A stretch of DNA of 64,000 bases, taken from positions 35,021 through 99,020 of the forward strand of contig JAEUSF010000003.1 in NCBI GenBank assembly GCA_016788665.1, given 5' to 3'. A program made the translations under genes and the position numbers. The notes beneath the pieces are model-generated. The model did not search any database and had not been told where the DNA came from. It was given only the letters and a program-made list of their open reading frames with translations. How positions within the stretch are numbered: the stretch's first letter is position 1; every line of letters begins with the position of its first letter. Shown in pieces: positions 21,820-48,825 of this stretch. The stretch is from Candidatus Doudnabacteria bacterium. GTDB taxonomy: Bacteria > Patescibacteriota > Doudnabacteria > UBA920.

Positions 21820-21920
21820 AAAAAAAGTTATGTTAGTAAAAATGGATAAAAATGGGGACATGACCCATTAATTTAGATTCAATATTTTTTGGTTATGGCT
21901 ACGTATTGTACCTTTTTTGC

Positions 21921-21954
21921 ATTTACTCCAATACTAGATAGTATTGGAGTAAAT
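21921..21954. repeat. Perfect 15-bp inverted repeat with 4-bp spacer (ATTTACTCCAATACT agat AGTATTGGAGTAAAT), just upstream of the GC-rich island A promoter
   Basis: The arms are exact reverse complements. Sits in the 260-bp AT-rich spacer at the island boundary. Confidence 0.75.
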
Positions 21955-21988
21955 GTTAAGAATCGGTTTTATTTATTTTAAGTTGCCC

Positions 21989-22018
21989 TTGTAAAAAGTT
22001 AGCAAATGTTGTATAATG
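21989..22018 (+). promoter_or_regulatory. Candidate promoter (TTGTAA-18-TATAAT) for the PEP-CTERM gene, followed by a 9-bp-stem 5' UTR hairpin (22027-22062) and GGAGGG RBS
   Basis: Hexamers and the AAATCCTTC/GAAGGATTT inverted repeat read directly. RBS at 22068-22073, ATG at 22077. Confidence 0.35.
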
Positions 22019-22076
22019 CCCTAAACAAATCCTTCAAACCTCGCTAGGTTAAGAAGGATTTTATGTTGGAGGGAAA

Positions 22077-22583
22077 ATGATTCTGTTTGTCATGCTCTTG
22101 GCAGGTAGTATGCTAGGGGCCACTCTCTCGCTCGGTACGGGGCCGACCATAGAGGTTTCGAACTTCTCGGCCGGGACGTCCGAGTTTAGTGTCCAGGTTT
22201 CGCAGCCTGGGTACAACTTTGCTGGAGTAAAAATCCAGCCGCTTGCACCGGGTCTTGACCTGGTACTGAACTCGGCTACAGTGAACGGCAATGTCGCCAC
22301 CGGCTTTTCGGTGGGTTCTTTGGACGGGGCGAAGTACATAGCCCCGGACTCGGCAACGCTGCTGTTGCCCAACTTCGCTGTTGGGACGGTGGTGTTTAAC
22401 CTCACCGCTACAGGTGCGGTCGAGGGACAGAGCCCAAGCCAGCTCTTTATGGTTTTCTTGCAAAACCAGAACAGCTACGGCTTTACGGCGTATAACACCG
22501 CCGATTCTCCGGAGCCTGCAACCTGGGCGCTCGCAGGAGCTGTGCTCCTGGTGCTTGTGGCACTGGGCAAAAAACCTAGTTAG
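22077..22583 (+). CDS. Secreted protein with signal peptide and C-terminal PEP-CTERM-type sorting signal (SPEPATWALAGAVLLVLVALGKKPS*); GC-rich gene, probably foreign
   Basis: N-terminal hydrophobic signal peptide. C-terminus is PEP + hydrophobic helix + KK, as in exosortase substrates. Gene GC is about 57% against about 39% in the flanks. Confidence 0.55.
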   Translation: MILFVMLLAGSMLGATLSLGTGPTIEVSNFSAGTSEFSVQVSQPGYNFAGVKIQPLAPGLDLVLNSATVNGNVATGFSVGSLDGAKYIAPDSATLLLPNFAVGTVVFNLTATGAVEGQSPSQLFMVFLQNQNSYGFTAYNTADSPEPATWALAGAVLLVLVALGKKPS

Positions 22584-22614
22584 CCTTCCAACTTTTGTTC
22601 GGAGGCTTTTTTAT
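22583..22614 (+). terminator. Rho-independent terminator for the PEP-CTERM gene (GCCTTCC...GGAGGC then TTTTTT)
   Basis: Hairpin followed by a T-run immediately after the stop codon. Confidence 0.5.
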
Positions 22615-22652
22615 TTGCAAAAAAATACGCTGGCAACGGTTGTCGCCAGCGT
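22615..22652 (-). terminator. Rho-independent terminator for the minus-strand gene 22680..23177 (ACGCTGGC / GCCAGCGT 8-bp stem, T-run on the minus strand)
   Basis: Perfect 8-bp stem. The A-run on the plus strand is a T-run on the minus strand. Confidence 0.5.
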
Positions 22653-22679
22653 ACAGAAGTTTCGCGAAGAGGGTCGGTA

Positions 22680-23177
22680 CTACTCTTTGAAGATCGTGGG
22701 ATAGGCCTTTTTGGCCTTTTCCCAAGCGTCGACCAGAACCTTGGGCTCCGGCGACTTGAGAGTGAGATCGGTTTCCCGAATTACGCTCTTGAACCGCTCG
22801 CAGTCTTCGGTCTCGAACGGGAAGGCAGCTCCTTCCTTGCATCCCGACGTGACTTCAATTTGGAGGCTCGTCCGGCTGTCTTCCAGCATCCTTCTTACGA
22901 CTTGGATCACGGTTCTTTGCGAACCGATCATACGGTTGATGCTCTGCAGAACTTCATGGTCTCCGAAGACAAGTCCTTTTTCCAGATCCTGGCCGCTGAC
23001 TTTTAGCTTACTCTGGAAGGTTTGGAGCTTTCCGCTCCATTCTTTGATAACCCGGACTTCGTTCCGGGCCGTCTCCAGCCTCATCTTGCCCATTTGGGCA
23101 AGAGGGTCTTCCTGCCCAAAGGCCGCGGAGGCGGCCAATACCAACACCAACCACAACACGATCATAACGCGTTTCAT
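22680..23177 (-). CDS. GC-rich secreted hypothetical protein (signal peptide MKRVMIVLWLVLVLAASAAFGQ, two Cys)
   Basis: Convergent with the PEP-CTERM gene and of similar elevated GC. Its upstream region carries CTCTTCG..CGAAGAG / TTCGCGAA palindromes. Confidence 0.5.
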   Translation of the reverse strand: MKRVMIVLWLVLVLAASAAFGQEDPLAQMGKMRLETARNEVRVIKEWSGKLQTFQSKLKVSGQDLEKGLVFGDHEVLQSINRMIGSQRTVIQVVRRMLEDSRTSLQIEVTSGCKEGAAFPFETEDCERFKSVIRETDLTLKSPEPKVLVDAWEKAKKAYPTIFKE

Positions 23178-23429
23178 TTGCTCTCTCTTCTGGTAGTAGT
23201 GTCTCTTCGTATTCGCGAAGAGCAGGCTGTGGGCCTTCTAAAAGACCCTAAAACTGCTCTTCGCGAAAAATATAGGCCTCCTTATACTTGAGTGTAATTA
23301 TAGCATATTTAGAATAAAAAGTCAATGTGCTCGTACGTACAAAAAAAACTTATAAACATTGGTGTATATGAACCAGCTTAATATTTTAGATTTGGCTAAA
23401 AATATGGTAAAATTAATAATATTTTTGGC

Positions 23430-24806
23430 ATGGAAATTAAAGATTTAAAAGACAAATTGGTCGCTGTTTTAGGCTTTGGCCTAGAAGGTCAGGCGACGAC
23501 AAAGTATTTGCTCAAGCACGGTGTAAAACCCGTGCTGTTTGACGAAAGGCCTTTGGAAAGTTTTGAAGCAGGTGAGCAGGATTTTATAAAGGCAGAAAAT
23601 TTGAATTTTATTTTTGGTCCGCAGGCTTTTTTGGAACTAAAAGGTTTTGACGTAGTTTTTAGGAGTCCCGGCATTAAGCTGTCTGAAATACAAGACAAGG
23701 TTTCGACTAAAACTGTAATTACTTCCCAAACAAAATATTTTTTTGAACATTGTCCTGCAAAAATAATTGGCGTAACCGGAACAAAAGGCAAAGGTACTAC
23801 AGCTTCTTTAATTTTCGAAATTCTACAAGCTACCAGCTACAAGCTACCACCTAGTGTTTATTTAACTGGCAATATTGGCAATGTTCAGCCTTTAGAAATA
23901 CTAGATGAACTTAAAAAGGAAGATGTGGTTGTGTATGAACTTTCGAGTTTTCAGTTGCAAGACTTAACTCAGAGCCCGCATATTGGAGTTTGTTTAATGG
24001 TTACCAGTGAGCATTTGGACTATCATAAAAGCGTGGAGGAGTATTGGCAAGCAAAGTCTGCTATAACACGATTTCAGACAAAAAATAACTTTACTGTTGT
24101 AAACGTGGATTACGAGGGGTCAAAATATATTGGTAGTTTAGGCGAAGGGATAAAAATATTCGTGAGTACAAAGCAAGTCTTACAAGAAGGTGTTTGTTTG
24201 GACGGCGAAAAAATTAAAGCAGTTTTTGGTTCGTTGAACTTAAGTATTCCGTTGCCAGTTGTAAGGTTAAGGGGTAGGCATAACTTAGAAAACATTCTAG
24301 CGAGCATTGCGGCCTGTTTGGCTTTGGGTTATGAAGTGCAGAGTATTTTAGAAACTGTAAAAAATTTTAATGGGTTGGAACACAGGCTTGAATTTGTTGG
24401 AGAAAAAAACGGAGTTAAGTACTATAACGACTCTTTTTCCACAACGCCTGACACTGCTATTGCAGCTTTGGAGAGTTTTTCTGAAAAAATTGTGGTCATA
24501 TTGGGCGGTTCTAGCAAAAAAAGTAACTTTGCCGTATTGGGAGAGAAGTTAAATACCGCTAATAATATAAGAGGTGTTGTACTGGTTGGCGACGAGGGTT
24601 CTAACATAAAAGCCCAGATAAAAAATTCAGCAATACAAATTTTAGAAGGGGCAAAGAATATGGCCGAAATTGTTAAGCAGGCAAATAGTTTGGCGGAGTC
24701 CGGTGACGTGGTTTTATTGTCCCCGGCTTGTGTGTCGTTTGGAATGTTTAAAAACTATAAGGACAGGGGAGAGCAGTTTAAATATCAAATATCAAATAAC
24801 AAGTGA
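23430..24806 (+). CDS. murD: UDP-N-acetylmuramoylalanine--D-glutamate ligase (MurD)
   Basis: Mur ligase P-loop IIGVTGTKGKGTT. The dcw-cluster context (mraY upstream, ftsW downstream) points to MurD. Confidence 0.85.
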   Translation: MEIKDLKDKLVAVLGFGLEGQATTKYLLKHGVKPVLFDERPLESFEAGEQDFIKAENLNFIFGPQAFLELKGFDVVFRSPGIKLSEIQDKVSTKTVITSQTKYFFEHCPAKIIGVTGTKGKGTTASLIFEILQATSYKLPPSVYLTGNIGNVQPLEILDELKKEDVVVYELSSFQLQDLTQSPHIGVCLMVTSEHLDYHKSVEEYWQAKSAITRFQTKNNFTVVNVDYEGSKYIGSLGEGIKIFVSTKQVLQEGVCLDGEKIKAVFGSLNLSIPLPVVRLRGRHNLENILASIAACLALGYEVQSILETVKNFNGLEHRLEFVGEKNGVKYYNDSFSTTPDTAIAALESFSEKIVVILGGSSKKSNFAVLGEKLNTANNIRGVVLVGDEGSNIKAQIKNSAIQILEGAKNMAEIVKQANSLAESGDVVLLSPACVSFGMFKNYKDRGEQFKYQISNNK

Positions 24807-28221: not shown

Positions 28222-29835
28222 ATGATAAAGTATATAAAAATTTTGGAGTCAGATTTTACAGTTGGCAAAGCAGCTATTATTATTGGGTTTTTTAGTTTTG
28301 CGACAAAACTAGCAGCACTTTTTAGAGAAAGACTGTTTGCTTCTTATTTTGGCCAGGGCCCACTGCTCGATAGTTATTTTTCGGCTTTTCGTATACCGGA
28401 TTTTGTAACAAATTTGTTTGTTTTAAGTACTCTCTCGGTAGCTTTTTTGCCAGTATTTGCTAGGGAAAAAAAAGCCAGCAGGGAAGAAGCGGAAAAGTTT
28501 GCTAACACTTGTTTAGATTTTGGGCTTTTGTTTGTGGGGGCAGTGTGTCTGATTTTATTTGTTTTTTCTAAACCTATGACCCAATATTTGGTTCCGGGTT
28601 TCTCTGGCCAACAGCTACAAGATACGCTAAAGTTAACCCGTTTATTTTTGCTAACTCCAATTATTTTTACAGCTTCAACTATTTTTGGCGGAGTTTTAAA
28701 CGCGAAAAAAAAGTTTATAATAACCAGCTTGGCGCCACTGCTTTATAATTTGGGTATAATTTTCGGGATTGTTTTCTTATTTGGACGTTTTGGCATTTTG
28801 GGGCTAGGATATGGAGTTATTTTAGGGGCCTTGGCCCAGTTATTTGTTCAGGTTTACACGGTATGGTCGGGTGGCTTTTCTTTAAAATGGAGTTTTAATT
28901 CTAAGTTGCCGGCATTCCGCGAAATGTTGCAAATGTATTTGCCAAGAATTTTTACTTTTGACTTGGCAAATGTGACTTTGCTTCTAACCACAATTTTTGC
29001 GTCTTTGGTAGTGCCTGGATCTATAACCGCGGTGAATCAGTCTTTTAACTTACAGTCTGTTCCGATTGGAATATTTGCGTTTGCTTTGTCGTCGGCGGTG
29101 TTTCCGGTTTTTAGCGAACATTTTGCAAATAAAAACGAAATTGGGTATGCCAATAGTTTAAAAAAATCTGTACGTCAAATTTTGTTTCTAATGGTTCCCG
29201 CTACTGTTTTTCTGGTAATTTTTAGAGCTTACGTTGTTAGGCTTGTTTTAGGGGCGGGGAATTTTAGCTGGGAAGACACTGTCACAACTTTTACCTTTTT
29301 AGGTATTTTTGCTTTCTCGCTTGTAAGCCAGAGCCTTACCACTTTGCTTTCCAGGGCTTTTTTTGCAAGACATAATACCAAAACCCCTGTGAAGGCAAAC
29401 TTGGTGTCTGTGGCAATAAACATTGTTTTGTCTTATGTATTGTTTCAGAGGTTGGGTACGGAAGGTTTGGTTTTAGGATTTGTATTTTCTAGCATTTTTA
29501 ATGCATCGTACCTGGCTCTTTCCTTAAGGGATATACTGCGAAAACAGGCAGGTGTTCAGGTGGTTTATGAGTTAGAAAAATTTGTGCTTGTGGGTTTAAA
29601 TAAAATAATTATGTCTTCGGTCATAGGGGGCGCGGTTAGCTACGGCTTAATTTATGCTCTGGAGCCTTTTGTTTACACTAATACTTTTTTTGGTATATTG
29701 GTTCAGGCTGCATTAGCTGGAGCTGGTGGAGTTGCGGTATATTTGTTTGCCTCGTTTAAGTTAGGTTTAGTGGAGGCTCAGGCGGTATATATTGCAGTAA
29801 GTAAACTGCTGCCAAATAAAAAACCCTCTTTTTAA
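28222..29835 (+). CDS. murJ: Lipid II flippase MurJ (MviN)
   Basis: 14-TM MOP-superfamily protein with a MurJ-like N-terminus (FRERLFASYFGQGPLLDSYFSAFRIPDF). Confidence 0.9.
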   Translation: MIKYIKILESDFTVGKAAIIIGFFSFATKLAALFRERLFASYFGQGPLLDSYFSAFRIPDFVTNLFVLSTLSVAFLPVFAREKKASREEAEKFANTCLDFGLLFVGAVCLILFVFSKPMTQYLVPGFSGQQLQDTLKLTRLFLLTPIIFTASTIFGGVLNAKKKFIITSLAPLLYNLGIIFGIVFLFGRFGILGLGYGVILGALAQLFVQVYTVWSGGFSLKWSFNSKLPAFREMLQMYLPRIFTFDLANVTLLLTTIFASLVVPGSITAVNQSFNLQSVPIGIFAFALSSAVFPVFSEHFANKNEIGYANSLKKSVRQILFLMVPATVFLVIFRAYVVRLVLGAGNFSWEDTVTTFTFLGIFAFSLVSQSLTTLLSRAFFARHNTKTPVKANLVSVAINIVLSYVLFQRLGTEGLVLGFVFSSIFNASYLALSLRDILRKQAGVQVVYELEKFVLVGLNKIIMSSVIGGAVSYGLIYALEPFVYTNTFFGILVQAALAGAGGVAVYLFASFKLGLVEAQAVYIAVSKLLPNKKPSF

Positions 29836-30353
29836 ATGGGGTGGGGCAATTGGCCGCTGGGGTTTGCCGGCAGTGCAATGGGCAGGCCCATGTCCTTGCC
29901 CAGCTTGTCGGTAAGAGCTCGCGTCTCGGGGTACTGCTCGCCCTGCCTAAACAGGGCTTCTTGGTAGTTTCCAACAGCGCTGAGCAGGAAACTGAAAATG
30001 TTGGGTGAGAACCGGCCGCTTCTGCTTAGGCTGGTTTTGATGCTCCCTGCGTAGAACACAATGTTCTCGTACGACCTCTTTTCAACCCCCTGGTAAAACT
30101 TGTCACGAAGAGCTTGTAACTCTTCTTCGCTCGTTCCAAGCTTTGCGAGGTCACGAACGCCGGCTTTCGCCATTGTCCGCCAAATTTCGCCAATGGCGAG
30201 AACGGGGTCAGTGACGAGGCCGTCACGAAGTCCGCGCACGAGCTCGCAGGCCTGTGCGAGTTTGGTCTCTCTTTTTTCGCATTTGCTTGCGTACGCCTTT
30301 TGGGGCGCCCGCTAAAATTAGCGCGGTCAGCATGAGCGCTTTTACGAAATTCA
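29832..30353 (-). pseudogene. GC-rich secreted protein gene interrupted by a frameshift at an A6 homopolymer; restored product is about 173 aa with signal peptide MNFVKALMLTALILAGAP
   Basis: The signal-peptide frame (ATG at 30353, RBS AAGGAGGG 6 nt upstream) stops after 48 codons. Deleting one A in AAAAAAG joins it in frame to the 135-aa ORF 29832..30239. Its stop overlaps the murJ stop. Confidence 0.45.
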
Positions 30354-30460
30354 TTTTCTGATCCCTCCTTTTTGGGACTTTGGCTAGTTATCAGGAATTA
30401 TTGTTTAAGTCTAGAGCTTTAAGGCTTTATTCTTTTTGCTTTATTTGGTAAAATTGCCTT

Positions 30461-32299
30461 ATGTCACAACAAGAAAACATAAGAAATTTTTGCATAATAG
30501 CTCATATAGACCACGGGAAGAGTACGCTTGCCGACAGGCTTTTGGAAATTACGAATACTGTTTTGAAAAGGGACATGAAGAGCCAATTACTTGACCAAAT
30601 GGACTTGGAACGGGAGAGGGGCATAACGATTAAACTACAACCGGTACGCATGACTTACACAATGAAGAATGAAGAAGTTAGAACGCAGAATGGAAAAGAC
30701 ATTTCTGATTCTGAATTCTACATTCTTAATTTAATCGACACTCCTGGGCACGTGGACTTTTCTTACGAAGTGTCCAGGTCTTTGGCATGCTGCGAAGGTG
30801 CAATTTTGGTTGTCGACTCCACTCAAGGCATAGAAGCCCAAACCTTGGCCAATGTTTACTTAGCTTTAGAGCATGACTTGGCAATTATCCCGGTTATAAA
30901 TAAGATTGACCTGCCGAATTCAGACAGGCAAAAAACTGCCGAAGAGCTAAAGAGTGCTTTCGGCTTTACTGACGAAGAAATTTTGTATGCTTCGGGCAAA
31001 ACCGGCGAGGGCGTGGAAGATATAATTCATGCCGTAATTAAGCGCGTACCCGCTCCCAAAGGTGACAGTAAAAAACCTGTTAGGGCGCTAATATTTGACT
31101 CTATATATGACATACATAGAGGAGTGGTTGCTTACGTTAGGGTGTTTGACGGACAGATATTTCCGAGAGAAAAAATTTATACGTTGGAAAGTAAGACCGA
31201 GGCCGAAAGTTTAGAGGTTGGCTATTTTAAACCCAAAATGGAAAAGTCCGCTGAGATAAAAACCGGTGAAGTAGGTTATATTGTCACCGGACTTAGAGAC
31301 GTTTCCAAGGCCCGGGTGGGTGATACTATAACTCTGTTTGAGGGCCGCCAGACCGCCGAGCCTCTTCCAGGTTATAAACATGTGACTCCGATGGTTTATG
31401 CTACAATTTTTCCGGTTTCGGGCGATGATTATCCGTCTCTGCGTGATGCTATGGAAAAATTAAGGCTTTCCGACGCATCTCTTTCTTTTGAGCCTATAAA
31501 TATCCCTTCTATAGGATTTGGTTTTAGAACAGGGTTTTTAGGCCTTTTGCATATGGATATTGTGCAAGAAAGGTTGTCTCGCGAGTATAACTTAGATTTG
31601 GTTTTAACTGCTCCAAGCGTTGCGTACAGAATAGTGAAATCAGATGGTTCTGAAATTACTATCCATAATCCGGCTGAAATGCCCGACCCGAGTATAATAA
31701 AAGAAATGTACGAACCGTGGATGCTGGTTAATATTTTAACCCCGACGGATCATATTGGGCCCATTATGGAAATTGCTACTCAAAGAAGGGCTGTGAGTAA
31801 AGATATAAAATATATTTCAAAAGACAGGGTAGATATGTCTTTTGAAATGCCTCTTGCAAATATTATTTTGGACTTTTATGACAAACTTAAGTCCGTGTCT
31901 TCTGGTTACGCTTCTCTGAATTATGATTTTGTGGAAGAGCGGGTAGGAGATTTGGCTAAAGTTGATATTTTAGTGGCGGGGGAAAAGGTAGACGCTCTTT
32001 CGGTAATTATGCATCGTTCATTTGCGGCTCAGGAAGGCAAGGAATTGGTTGCGAAGCTAAAAGAGCTTATTCCGAGACATCAATTTGAAATAGCTCTTCA
32101 GGCCGCAATCGGAGGGAAAGTAGTCGCTCGGGAAACAATATCGGCGCTTAGAAAAGATGTGACAGGATATTTATATGGGGGCGATGTTACCCGAAAAATG
32201 AAGCTTTTAAACAAGCAAAAAAAAGGTAAGAAACGAATGAAAAAAATTGGCAAGGTTGACATACCGCAGGAAGCATTTTTAGCAGTACTTAAAAAATAG
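30461..32299 (+). CDS. lepA: Elongation factor 4 (LepA)
   Basis: AHIDHGKST G1 motif, 612 aa, LepA-specific C-terminal domain. Confidence 0.95.
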   Translation: MSQQENIRNFCIIAHIDHGKSTLADRLLEITNTVLKRDMKSQLLDQMDLERERGITIKLQPVRMTYTMKNEEVRTQNGKDISDSEFYILNLIDTPGHVDFSYEVSRSLACCEGAILVVDSTQGIEAQTLANVYLALEHDLAIIPVINKIDLPNSDRQKTAEELKSAFGFTDEEILYASGKTGEGVEDIIHAVIKRVPAPKGDSKKPVRALIFDSIYDIHRGVVAYVRVFDGQIFPREKIYTLESKTEAESLEVGYFKPKMEKSAEIKTGEVGYIVTGLRDVSKARVGDTITLFEGRQTAEPLPGYKHVTPMVYATIFPVSGDDYPSLRDAMEKLRLSDASLSFEPINIPSIGFGFRTGFLGLLHMDIVQERLSREYNLDLVLTAPSVAYRIVKSDGSEITIHNPAEMPDPSIIKEMYEPWMLVNILTPTDHIGPIMEIATQRRAVSKDIKYISKDRVDMSFEMPLANIILDFYDKLKSVSSGYASLNYDFVEERVGDLAKVDILVAGEKVDALSVIMHRSFAAQEGKELVAKLKELIPRHQFEIALQAAIGGKVVARETISALRKDVTGYLYGGDVTRKMKLLNKQKKGKKRMKKIGKVDIPQEAFLAVLKK

Positions 32300-33305: not shown

Positions 33306-33331
33306 AAAACACCTTTTAAAAAGATGTTTGA

Positions 33332-33481
33332 CTAGAGTTTGCCGATGATTAATTTGGCTGAAATGGCAATCGCTAAAGCTGTTGCAGCTGCGCCAAGCGC
33401 TACTTGGGCTGGAATGTTTAGGAGGAGCAAACTGCCAAGAGCCCCGGCTATGCCGACGCTAATACTAATGCATTTTCGCAT
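33332..33481 (-). CDS. 49-aa hydrophobic peptide (MRKCISISVGIAGALGSLLLLNIPAQVALGAAATALAIAISAKLIIGKL) with a perfect Shine-Dalgarno; not in the ORF track
   Basis: AGGAGG then 6 nt then ATG. Starts 10 nt after the stop of the 103-aa ORF 33492..33803 on the same strand. One to two predicted TM helices rich in small residues. Confidence 0.45.
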   Translation of the reverse strand: MRKCISISVGIAGALGSLLLLNIPAQVALGAAATALAIAISAKLIIGKL

Positions 33482-33491
33482 TCGATTCCTC

Positions 33492-33803
33492 CTAACTACT
33501 CATGCACAGTGGTGGCAGGTCATCCAGTGGCGATTCGCGGAACTTGGTTGGTATGCAACCGTGAGTCAGGATCGCGAGAACATACCAGCAGAATGTAGCA
33601 AACCTAACTGTCCTCCTCTGTCCTGCAATGGATAGCTCCCACGACAGCTCTGCTTCCATTGTGTGGTTTTCCCACTCGAAGACCAAGGCTGTTCTGTTGG
33701 CGAGAAGCGCCAGGTCATGATCGGTTTGTTGTGACATCGGCAAGCTTTCAAACGCTTGCCAACATTTTACAAGGTTGCTATAGCTAAGCCGAAAACTGAA
33801 CAT
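33492..33803 (-). CDS. Hypothetical protein (103 aa, possibly 81 aa from the internal Met MSQQTDHD...), first gene of a two-gene minus-strand unit in a GC-elevated patch
   Basis: ORF in a roughly 50% GC segment. TATAAT lies 8 nt upstream of its ATG on the minus strand. No recognisable domain. Confidence 0.4.
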   Translation of the reverse strand: MFSFRLSYSNLVKCWQAFESLPMSQQTDHDLALLANRTALVFEWENHTMEAELSWELSIAGQRRTVRFATFCWYVLAILTHGCIPTKFRESPLDDLPPLCMSS

Positions 33804-33840
33804 AAATTGATTATACTTTAAATTTGGTAATATTTAAAAT

Positions 33841-47539: not shown

Positions 47540-47615
47540 CGCGGGATAGAGCAATTGGCAGCTCGTCAGGCTCATAACCTGAAGGTTCCCGGTTCGAGTC
47601 CGGGTCCCGCAACCA
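47540..47615 (+). tRNA. Initiator tRNA-fMet (anticodon CAT)
   Basis: Starts CGCGGGA and ends TCCCGCAACCA, with the C1:A72 mismatch typical of bacterial initiators. CUCAUAA anticodon loop. Close to the E. coli tRNA-fMet sequence. Confidence 0.8.
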
Positions 47616-47995
47616 TAAACCATTCGCTAACGCTCAGGTATATGGCGCGGTCATAAGTCGCGTTTTGAGTGTTGCGACCATTTGTTTATATTGGCGAATG
47701 GTTTATGACCTTACTCGGCCCCGTTTTGGCGGGAGAGTGTTTAGGGCATGAAGGCGACAAATATAATAGCAAAATCGTGACAGATTTTTCCCGCTGTCCG
47801 CGGGATTTATTTTGTTCGTAATTACGCGTGGCGGTCACGCTTAACGTGACTGTTGCCGCGCTTAGCGCGGCGGAGTAGCTGAAGTGTTACCCGCCCGAAC
47901 GTACCCCGCCAGAATGAAACTTTCGGGCTAGCGTTCGGTACGGGCGAGGAGCGTGGGACTCATAAGTCACCTAAGTGATCCGGGGTTTCTATAAT

Positions 47996-48029
47996 ATGTT
48001 TTATGCATATGTTTTATGCATATGTTTTA
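47996..48029. repeat. Tandem repeat, 13-bp unit ATGTTTTATGCAT x2.6
   Basis: Read directly (atgttttatgcat atgttttatgcat atgtttta). Confidence 0.8.
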
Positions 48030-48248
48030 AAGAACACTAAAGGAATTCTATATAAAGGATCAACGGATAATTTAGAATAAAGGAGCATAACTCAAAATTA
48101 TTTAAGTCATTCACGAGAGGTAGGGGAGCATGGATACTTGTGTATTTTGAAGAGTTTAACACTAGGCGAGAGGCGGAAATACGAGAAAAGTATTTTAAGT
48201 CTAAAGCTGGGTGGTTCTATTTTAAAAATACGTTACATCTATTATAAT

Positions 48249-48325
48249 GGCGGAGTAGCTCAGTTAGTTAGAGCGTGGGACTCATAAGCCCAAGGTCGGT
48301 GGTGCAATTCCACCCTCCGCTACCA
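48249..48325 (+). tRNA. tRNA-like gene with CAT anticodon (Met or Ile2/lysidine type), atypical T-loop (G at position 55); preceded by TATAAT
   Basis: 77-nt cloverleaf: acceptor GGCGGAG/CTCCGCT (G1:U72 wobble), D arm GCTC-AGTTAGTTA-GAGC, anticodon loop CUCAUAA, T arm GGTGG-TGCAATT-CCACC, CCA encoded. Confidence 0.5.
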
Positions 48326-48334
48326 AAACACTTT

Positions 48335-48388
48335 GGGACTCATAAGTCACTTAAGTGATCGGTGGTGCAATTCCACCCTCCGCTACCA
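48335..48388 (+). repeat. Partial tandem copy of the tRNA(CAT)-like gene: the anticodon-loop segment and the T arm/acceptor 3' end, interrupted by the palindrome GTCACTTAAGTGAT
   Basis: GGGACTCATAAG then TCACTTAAGTGATC then GGTGGTGCAATTCCACCCTCCGCTACCA. Identical to the 48249 gene except for the insert. Confidence 0.55.
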
Positions 48389-48498
48389 GTCTTCGCTAAA
48401 GCCACGGCTGGCTATGGCCAGCAATATCTAAAGAAGGCTGTCCGACGAAGTCACCTAAGTGACGAAGTTGGACATACATTTAGTCTATAAATTTACAT

Positions 48499-48575
48499 GG
48501 GACCGTAGCTCAATTGGTTAGAGCACTCGCCTGTCACGCGAGAGGTTACGGGTTCGAGCCCCGCCGGTCCCGCCA
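48499..48575 (+). tRNA. tRNA-Asp (anticodon GTC)
   Basis: Acceptor GGGACCG/CGGTCCC, anticodon stem CTCGC/GCGAG with loop CUGUCAC, T arm ACGGG-TTCGAGC-CCCGC, CCA encoded. Confidence 0.85.
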
Positions 48576-48584
48576 TTAGAAAAT

Positions 48585-48612
48585 GCCTCACCTTTATGGT
48601 GGGGCTTTTTCT
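48585..48612 (+). terminator. Rho-independent terminator after tRNA-Asp (GCCTCACC / GGTGGGGC then TTTTT)
   Basis: 8-bp stem including one G-U pair, then a T-run. Confidence 0.5.
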
Positions 48613-48664
48613 ATGGTTAGAGTGGGCGAAAAGTTTATCCGCCGTAGTTTTAGCGAAGGAGGAA

Positions 48665-48683
48665 GCCCCGCCGGTCCCGCCAG
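48665..48683 (+). repeat. 19-nt direct repeat of the tRNA-Asp 3' end (AGCCCCGCCGGTCCCGCCA), 90 bp downstream of the gene; att-like scar
   Basis: Exact copy of tRNA positions 48557-48575. Confidence 0.6.
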
Positions 48684-48825
48684 TAGAAAACCATCTTGCT
48701 TAAGATGGTTATTAGGGCCTAGGCAGGTTAGAGCTGCGGCTGAAACTATATGCTAAAATTATCCTATCAGCCCAAGAGAAAATCAAAGCCTTAAAAGAAG
48801 TAGCTAAAATATTAAGATAAAACTT

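Follow-up and report, generated by a model that had tools for sequence, protein, structure and literature searches.

The window analysed here, a stretch of 64,000 nucleotides (nt; 64 kb) from a metagenome-assembled genome (MAG) of Candidatus Doudnabacteria, tiny uncultured bacteria of the Candidate Phyla Radiation (CPR; Patescibacteria), carries between murJ and lepA a minus-strand gene spanning 29832-30370 whose start and mature domain are read in different frames (Table 1). The start codon is ATG 30354-30352, preceded by a ribosome-binding site (RBS) of Shine-Dalgarno type; a first-pass annotation of the same DNA had reported an RBS and an ATG opening a signal-peptide frame, and the RBS was found at 30363-30370, with the ATG at 30354 rather than at 30353. 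In the frame of this ATG (frame 1) the product starts MNFVKALMLTALILAGAP and the full reading is MNFVKALMLTALILAGAPKGVRKQMRKKRDQTRTGLRARARTS; the frame is closed after 43 codons by TGA 30225-30223, not after 48 codons as first counted, and its basic tail has no counterpart in the homolog described below. Frame 2, one base downstream (+1) of the ATG frame, is open over a longer stretch, the nearest stop upstream being TAG 30314-30312, and appears in the program-made list of open reading frames (ORFs) as a GTG-initiated ORF of 135 amino acids (aa) at 29832..30239. This ORF and a fusion product of about 173 aa, obtained by deleting one base, had been described at first pass; both were recovered in the frame analysis, in which joining frames 1 and 2 by a single-base deletion gave 173 aa. 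Neither of the internal starts (GTG 30239 and ATG 30173) is preceded by an RBS. As the DNA stands, the strong RBS and the ATG would yield only a 43-aa peptide made of the signal peptide and a basic nonsense tail, and initiation at the internal starts would give a leaderless fragment without the cysteine (Cys) pair and without an export signal.

Table 1. Coordinates of the features of the gene and its surroundings (window positions; a dot in the strand column marks features without a strand).
Feature	Position	Strand	Remarks
Shine-Dalgarno sequence AAGGAGGG	30363..30370	-	GGAGG core ending 9 nt 5' of ATG; read directly
Divergent intergenic region common to the gene and lepA	30355..30460	.	lepA start at 30461, + strand
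Start and signal-peptide codons 1-19, frame 1, MNFVKALMLTALILAGAPK	30298..30354	-	Aligns to sibling MNPLKMVLLCVVLALSASAAK at protein and DNA level
43-codon frame-1 ORF as sequenced: signal peptide and out-of-frame basic tail GVRKQMRKKRDQTRTGLRARARTS	30223..30354	-	TGA 30225-30223
Frame-break interval, net +1 nt, CGGGCGCCCCAAAAGGCGTACG	30290..30311	-	Upper bound TAG 30314-30312; lower bound start of homolog match A-S-K-C (~30290)
A6 run	30272..30277	-	Frame 2 GAA AAA AGA (E-K-R); sibling GAC AAA AAG (D-K-K), equal length, same frame
Frame-2 open stretch, 159 codons and TAA 29834-29832	29832..30311	-	c-region, predicted cleavage site, mature protein
Convergent overlapping stops, gene 29832-29834 and murJ 29833-29835	29832..29835	.	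Inside palindrome TTTAAA; read from the sequence

The fused product was searched against 5.8 billion protein clusters and matched only two proteins. One (P0001) is the window's own annotated fragment (113 aa; NCBI MBL8030032.1, JNN11_02165; Candidatus Doudnabacteria MAG, 127-kb contig); public annotation describes JNN11_02165 as a 113-aa hypothetical protein from ATG 30173 and flags neither a frameshift nor a pseudogene, presumably because the annotation pipeline held no homolog. The other (P0002) comes from a sibling genome (GCA_964523855.1, contig CAZGAF010000032.1, locus L001) and is an intact protein of 164 aa encoded in a single frame (58% identity, 94% query coverage, E = 1.4e-54), collinear with the fused product from the initiator Met and the signal peptide through to the conserved C-terminal ...DMGLPIALP. 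Gene order at the sibling locus is that of the window (lepA, this gene, murJ, DUF4012, ftsW, a small ORF, murD and a GC-rich 167-aa gene). A third, partial copy (L007, Logan SRR12901019), 94% identical to P0002, runs off its contig at the 5' end; these two are the only close relatives in the large public protein collections searched. A scan of genome contigs returned the sibling only, a scan of metagenome contigs only one remote repeat protein, and the collections searched held no independent assembly of the window organism. The window gene shares with P0002 and the L007 copy 58-59% amino acid identity over the whole length, the site between murJ and lepA, the orientation, the signal peptide, the Cys-x10-Cys pair and a GC content at third codon positions (GC3) of 0.64-0.65; it differs in that the relatives use a single reading frame, and in that its stop overlaps that of murJ, whereas in the sibling a terminator-like spacer of 37 nt lies before murJ. 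In the DNA alignment the sibling carries AAGGGGGG at the position of the window Shine-Dalgarno sequence AAGGAGGG, and codons 1-19 are the true N-terminus of the gene. Because the intact P0002 is collinear with the fused product and its syntenic locus holds it between lepA and murJ, the two ORF pieces are one gene; match and synteny together are far beyond chance. An intact single-frame orthologue thus exists to which both pieces are collinear in different frames, as is found for frameshifted pseudogenes. The earlier proposal of a single secreted-protein gene broken by a one-base frame error therefore holds, on the strength of P0002 and its syntenic locus, and a homolog of the fused product, which the first-pass annotation had suggested looking for, was found, with the sibling copy intact.

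The position of the break was then fixed by comparison with P0002. The lesion had been placed in an A6 run at 30267-30272; the run is actually at 30272-30277, and across it P0002 matches frame 2 and not frame 1 (SKCEKRETKLAQAC in the window vs NECDKKESKVADAC). The residues in this region read A-S-K-C-E-K-R-E-T-K-L-A-Q-A-C in the window and A-N-E-C-D-K-K-E-S-K-V-A-D-A-C in P0002, with both Cys conserved, and the DNA alignment at the run is ungapped (GAAAAAAGAGAG vs GACAAAAAGGAA). Because homolog and DNA alignment alike pass through the A6 run in frame 2, the run is not the lesion; the break lies upstream, within 30290-30311, 13 to 39 nt from the run, in codons 16-22, where the signal peptide ends. 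The runs in this interval are all short (GGG 30308-30310, CCCC 30302-30305, AAAA 30298-30301 and GG 30296-30297). In the DNA alignment the window has GCGGGCGCCCCAAAA (A-G-A-P-K, frame 1) where the sibling has GCAAGCGCCGCAAAA (A-S-A-A-K); the window is 6 nt shorter in the hydrophobic core (h-region) and then 7 nt longer (GGCGTAC), a net excess of one base. Since the alignment nets one extra base there, the surplus base most likely sits in AAAAGG, 30296-30301. Any single-base deletion in 30290-30311 leads to ...KAYA↓SKCEK... (the arrow marking the cleavage site) and restores the 173-aa protein.

Signal peptides were assessed visually, following the -3/-1 rule. The restored N-terminus reads MNFVK / ALMLTALILAGA / P(K)AYA↓S and that of P0002 MNPLK / MVLLCVVLALSA / SAAKA↓N; in both, the type I pattern of a positively charged n-region, a hydrophobic h-region (10-15 residues) and small residues at -3/-1 was found. 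Signal peptide and mature domain stand in one frame in the sibling and in two in the window (frame 1 vs frame 2). By the same rule the predicted cleavage site KAYA↓S, parallel to AAKA↓NECDK in the sibling, would be a good A-x-A site. A lipoprotein lipobox (L-[AS]-[GA]-C) is absent from both: no Cys follows LAGA or LSAS, and the first Cys comes only at position +3 of the predicted mature sequence. The mature protein, about 150 aa long, contains a single 'LAKxGTSEEELQ' module and a conserved pair of Cys (C-x10-C). In scans against Pfam, NCBIfam and PHROGs, neither the restored protein nor P0002 nor the GC-rich genes nearby scored above threshold, and a profile search of PDB sequences gave no meaningful match (best E = 0.01, a NifU-like chain). 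Rfam scans returned no family that would account for the GC-richness, only a chance-level microRNA match outside the gene, and a reading as an RNA gene was rejected since no Rfam covariance model matched the gene. AlphaFold2 models were all-helical and of low confidence (predicted local distance difference test, pLDDT, 46 with the two-sequence alignment; pLDDT 59 and predicted template modelling score, pTM, 0.47 for the mature window protein alone), and Foldseek against PDB found only generic designed helical repeats (E >= 0.03, template modelling score < 0.4).

A HMMER profile search of 1.84 billion representatives returned, besides the two clade members, only three weak matches (E 4e-9 to 7e-4). 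The weak matches (P0003, P0004 and P0005) are repeat proteins with a module of about 55 aa containing '...LSLADIGTSEEEL...', of which the window protein has one copy, GVRDLAKLGTSEEELQALRDKFYQ; they differ in having 3-6 tandem copies, no signal peptide and other genomic contexts. The relation to these proteins is remote and motif-driven. The module itself, '...G.LSLADIGTSEEEL..L....HKA.A..WL..LR.G...', was located in P0003 (L003 2526-3047), P0004 (L008 786-1868) and P0005 (L009 1186-1710); it corresponds to no Pfam family and occurs in 3-6 copies in cytoplasmic proteins on unrelated metagenomic contigs. The best functional statement for the window gene is that its product would be a predicted Sec-exported, all-helical and possibly disulfide-bonded (C-x10-C) extracytoplasmic protein specific to this CPR clade.

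The GC content over 29832-30311 is 56.5%, in agreement with the 55-60% estimated at first pass, vs about 38% for the neighbours; GC3 is 0.65 in the gene vs 0.34 in murJ and 0.39 in lepA, and the gene is GC-rich in the sibling too, forming in both genomes an islet of composition atypical of the flanking genes. Identity to the sibling is 91% for LepA, 70% for MurJ, 69% for MurD, 69% for DUF4012 and 58-59% for this protein. Between the window and L001 the proportion of synonymous differences (pS) is 0.71 (saturated, the same as in the neighbours) and that of nonsynonymous differences (pN) 0.27, with a rough ratio of nonsynonymous to synonymous substitution rates (dN/dS) of about 0.16; between L001 and L007, at an unsaturated dS of 0.19, dN/dS is 0.19. 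Because dN/dS is about 0.16 and, at unsaturated dS, 0.19, the gene is functional in the relatives, where it is under purifying selection. In the outgroups L004 (MurJ 63% identical) and L005/L006 (59%), murJ is directly followed by lepA across spacers of 152 nt (L004) and 76 nt (L005/L006), without an insert; since these outgroups have the same gene order and not the gene, it was gained in the ancestor of the clade of window and sibling. No donor or sign of mobility was detected: the searches of 5.8 and 1.84 billion proteins gave no homolog outside the clade, and neither an integrase nor repeats were noticed on the ORF map of the window. The gene had been proposed to be a recently decayed foreign gene. 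It is indeed foreign-looking, but a recent import it is not, because it is syntenic in a genome whose MurJ is only 70% identical, has saturated synonymous sites and shows a dN/dS of about 0.16-0.19; a recent date is possible for the frameshift alone.

What was found is an ordinary frameshifted copy, or a mis-assembly, of a conserved orphan secreted-protein gene. It resembles single-lesion pseudogenes and frameshift artefacts in MAGs in its net 1-nt disruption, otherwise intact ORF and intact syntenic orthologue, and differs from them in that the family is an orphan and the lesion falls exactly at the junction of signal peptide and mature protein. Of the possible origins, a recent genuine inactivating frameshift, which would make the gene either a pseudogene of recent origin or a strain variant that became fixed in the consensus of the MAG, is judged somewhat more probable than all others together. 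The ancestor of the window genome and its sibling gained the GC-rich insert between murJ and lepA; the insert was then kept under purifying selection as a secreted-protein gene; and a net one-base excess at codons 16-22 would have broken the frame in the window genome, leaving a gene that may yield a 43-aa peptide and a mature domain without an RBS-bearing start or an export signal. The window is otherwise clean: all of the roughly 60 other ORFs in the 64 kb look intact and are densely tiled, and 20 adjacent ORFs compared with Pfam gave 11 complete or near-complete domains, three partial ones and six without a match, with no domain split between neighbours. From the intact ORFs and the absence of split domains it follows that the assembly has a low indel error rate. 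A genuine mutation is favoured because the window is clean, no long homopolymer lies in the lesion interval and the nearby A6 run is correct. Three points weigh on the other side. The clusters of P0001 and of P0006, the MurJ protein, contain one member apiece, from one contig each, which leaves room for an indel introduced in assembly or consensus; beyond the lesion the gene is pristine (RBS, start, 159 downstream codons, conserved residues), as in an artefact; and NCBI annotates a 113-aa hypothetical protein and not a pseudogene, a call that reflects only the lack of database homologs.

An error of assembly or consensus, in which the organism's gene is intact and encodes 173 aa, the surplus base of 30290-30311 stemming from assembly, polishing or strain collapse, is the serious competitor, possible though held to be less likely than not to be the answer. 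It would explain why everything except the lesion is intact and conserved, from RBS, ATG and signal peptide to the 159 codons kept by purifying selection; the DNA comes from a MAG contig, and an islet with a GC content of 0.56 in a background of 0.38 can cut coverage or disturb polishing. It sits less well with the lack of any other broken gene among the roughly 60 ORFs, and the candidate runs are only 2-4 nt long while the longer A6 run nearby is correct. A homopolymer sequencing error, as had been suggested at first pass, becomes less attractive for the same region, since the runs of the lesion interval are short (G3, C4, A4, G2).

Programmed +1 frameshifting, in which tRNA-Lys would slip from AAA (30300-30298) to AAG (30299-30297) and produce the full-length secreted protein, is very improbable. 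Re-pairing from AAA to AAG could occur at CCA-AAA-GGC, the product then continuing in the correct frame as ...AGAPK-AYASKCE..., with the remainder of the gene intact, and, as in genes of the prfB type, the full-length product would need a +1 shift from the window sequence. However, the L001 orthologue is read in one frame and needs no shift (L007 is without its 5' end); the A-site holds neither an in-frame stop nor a demonstrably rare, 'hungry' codon, there is no upstream Shine-Dalgarno-like stimulator as in prfB, and no Rfam element is present. The programmed slippage offered in the first-pass annotation finds no support: the orthologue does without a shift, and no +1 shift signal is recognizable.

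That the sequence encodes two separate products as it stands, a 43-aa membrane or secreted peptide and a leaderless cytoplasmic protein of 113-135 aa, is just as hard to credit: NCBI does call the 113-aa ORF (JNN11_02165) a gene, but no RBS precedes GTG 30239 or ATG 30173, the intact orthologue is one secreted protein, both internal starts lie downstream of the conserved Cys pair, and the tail of the 43-aa peptide is out of frame and has no homolog. Least credible of all is a surplus A in the run at 30272-30277, whose removal reopens the frame arithmetically but gives KGVRKQMRK, unmatched in the homolog, and replaces nine conserved residues including a Cys, whereas the homolog is in frame 2 both upstream of the run and through it (KAYASKCEKRE vs AAKANECDKKE).

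The flanks of the gene were compared with those of the sibling. The stop codon had been said to overlap that of murJ, and this is so (29832-29834 vs 29833-29835). In L001 a 37-nt spacer with a hairpin and a T-run parts the two stops; MurJ has 537 aa in the window vs 531 aa in the sibling and extends six residues into the spacer region. The stops overlap in the window because its MurJ reads through the region of the sibling's hairpin and T-run, and the overlap is a local detail of the window genome. The C-terminal tails of the two MurJ proteins are unconserved (...SKLLPNKKPSF in the window, 29790-29835; ...KSFKKFFK in the sibling, L001 2507-2546). On the other side, the intergenic region 30355..30460 is strongly conserved, with long runs identical to the sibling in the DNA alignment, and presumably holds the promoters of both genes; a promoter and terminator scan gave no consensus sigma-70 site or terminator for the minus-strand gene, and the hairpin 3' of the gene is weak (z = -1.4).

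A second GC-rich islet lies at about 21820-23430 of the window, between an amidohydrolase gene and murD (GC 0.53-0.57, GC3 0.66-0.68), and consists of two convergent orphan signal-peptide genes, 22077..22583 (+) and 22680..23177 (-), both kept in the sibling (L001) and absent from the outgroup L005/L006. The product of 22077..22583 ends in a tail resembling PEP-CTERM (PF07589, E = 0.018, below cutoff) and has one relative only among the 5.8 billion clusters (P0127, 83% identity). A near-consensus promoter (TTGACT-17-TATAAT) stands in front of 22680..23177; this gene was considered as a paralogue of the frameshifted gene and rejected on comparison. Two further stretches, 33330-33830 and 47615-48800, are richer in GC than the genome (0.47-0.52) and contain no convincing long ORF; their only Rfam matches are three tRNAs (two Met, one Asp). 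A hydrophobic peptide of 49 aa could be encoded at 33332..33481 (-), and the two stretches might hold unrecognized RNAs or small genes.

Third-position composition was compared where the genes could be measured in several genomes (window 29832-30311 and 22680-23177; L001 2012-2506 and 9217-9720; L007 2378-2773). GC3 is 0.64-0.68 throughout, for the frameshifted gene in the window, L001 and L007 and for 22680..23177 in the window (0.68) and L001 (0.64); flanking genes have 0.33-0.43, and synonymous sites between window and sibling are saturated (pS 0.57-0.71). As a rule, acquired genes are richer in AT than the host, and simple amelioration would predict a decay of GC3 towards about 0.35-0.5. 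Because GC3 is alike across the copies although synonymous sites between window and sibling are saturated, the GC-richness of the orphan genes suggests maintenance rather than a fading signature of transfer. That the codon usage of the three GC-rich genes (GC3 about 0.65 vs about 0.35 in the genome) is actively maintained, by selection on mRNA or translation or by a gene-specific process, is a tentative and on balance doubtful proposal. If it were true, the genes would form a compositionally distinct, lineage-specific secretome module within the cell-wall gene cluster of an episymbiotic CPR lineage, and the frameshift would be a snapshot of module loss or a strain-variable on/off state.

For annotation, JNN11_02165 is to be described as a frameshifted gene for a 173-aa secreted protein (a pseudogene or an assembly error) and not as a 113-aa hypothetical protein, with the lesion elsewhere than a homopolymer heuristic would place it. 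The biological stakes are modest, namely a very small orphan family of helical secreted proteins inserted in the murD-ftsW-murJ-lepA cluster of one Doudnabacteria-related clade, of which the lasting GC-rich codon usage in an AT-rich genome is the sole unusual aspect. CPR bacteria are thought to be host-attached, and lineage-specific secreted proteins such as this one are therefore candidate interaction factors.

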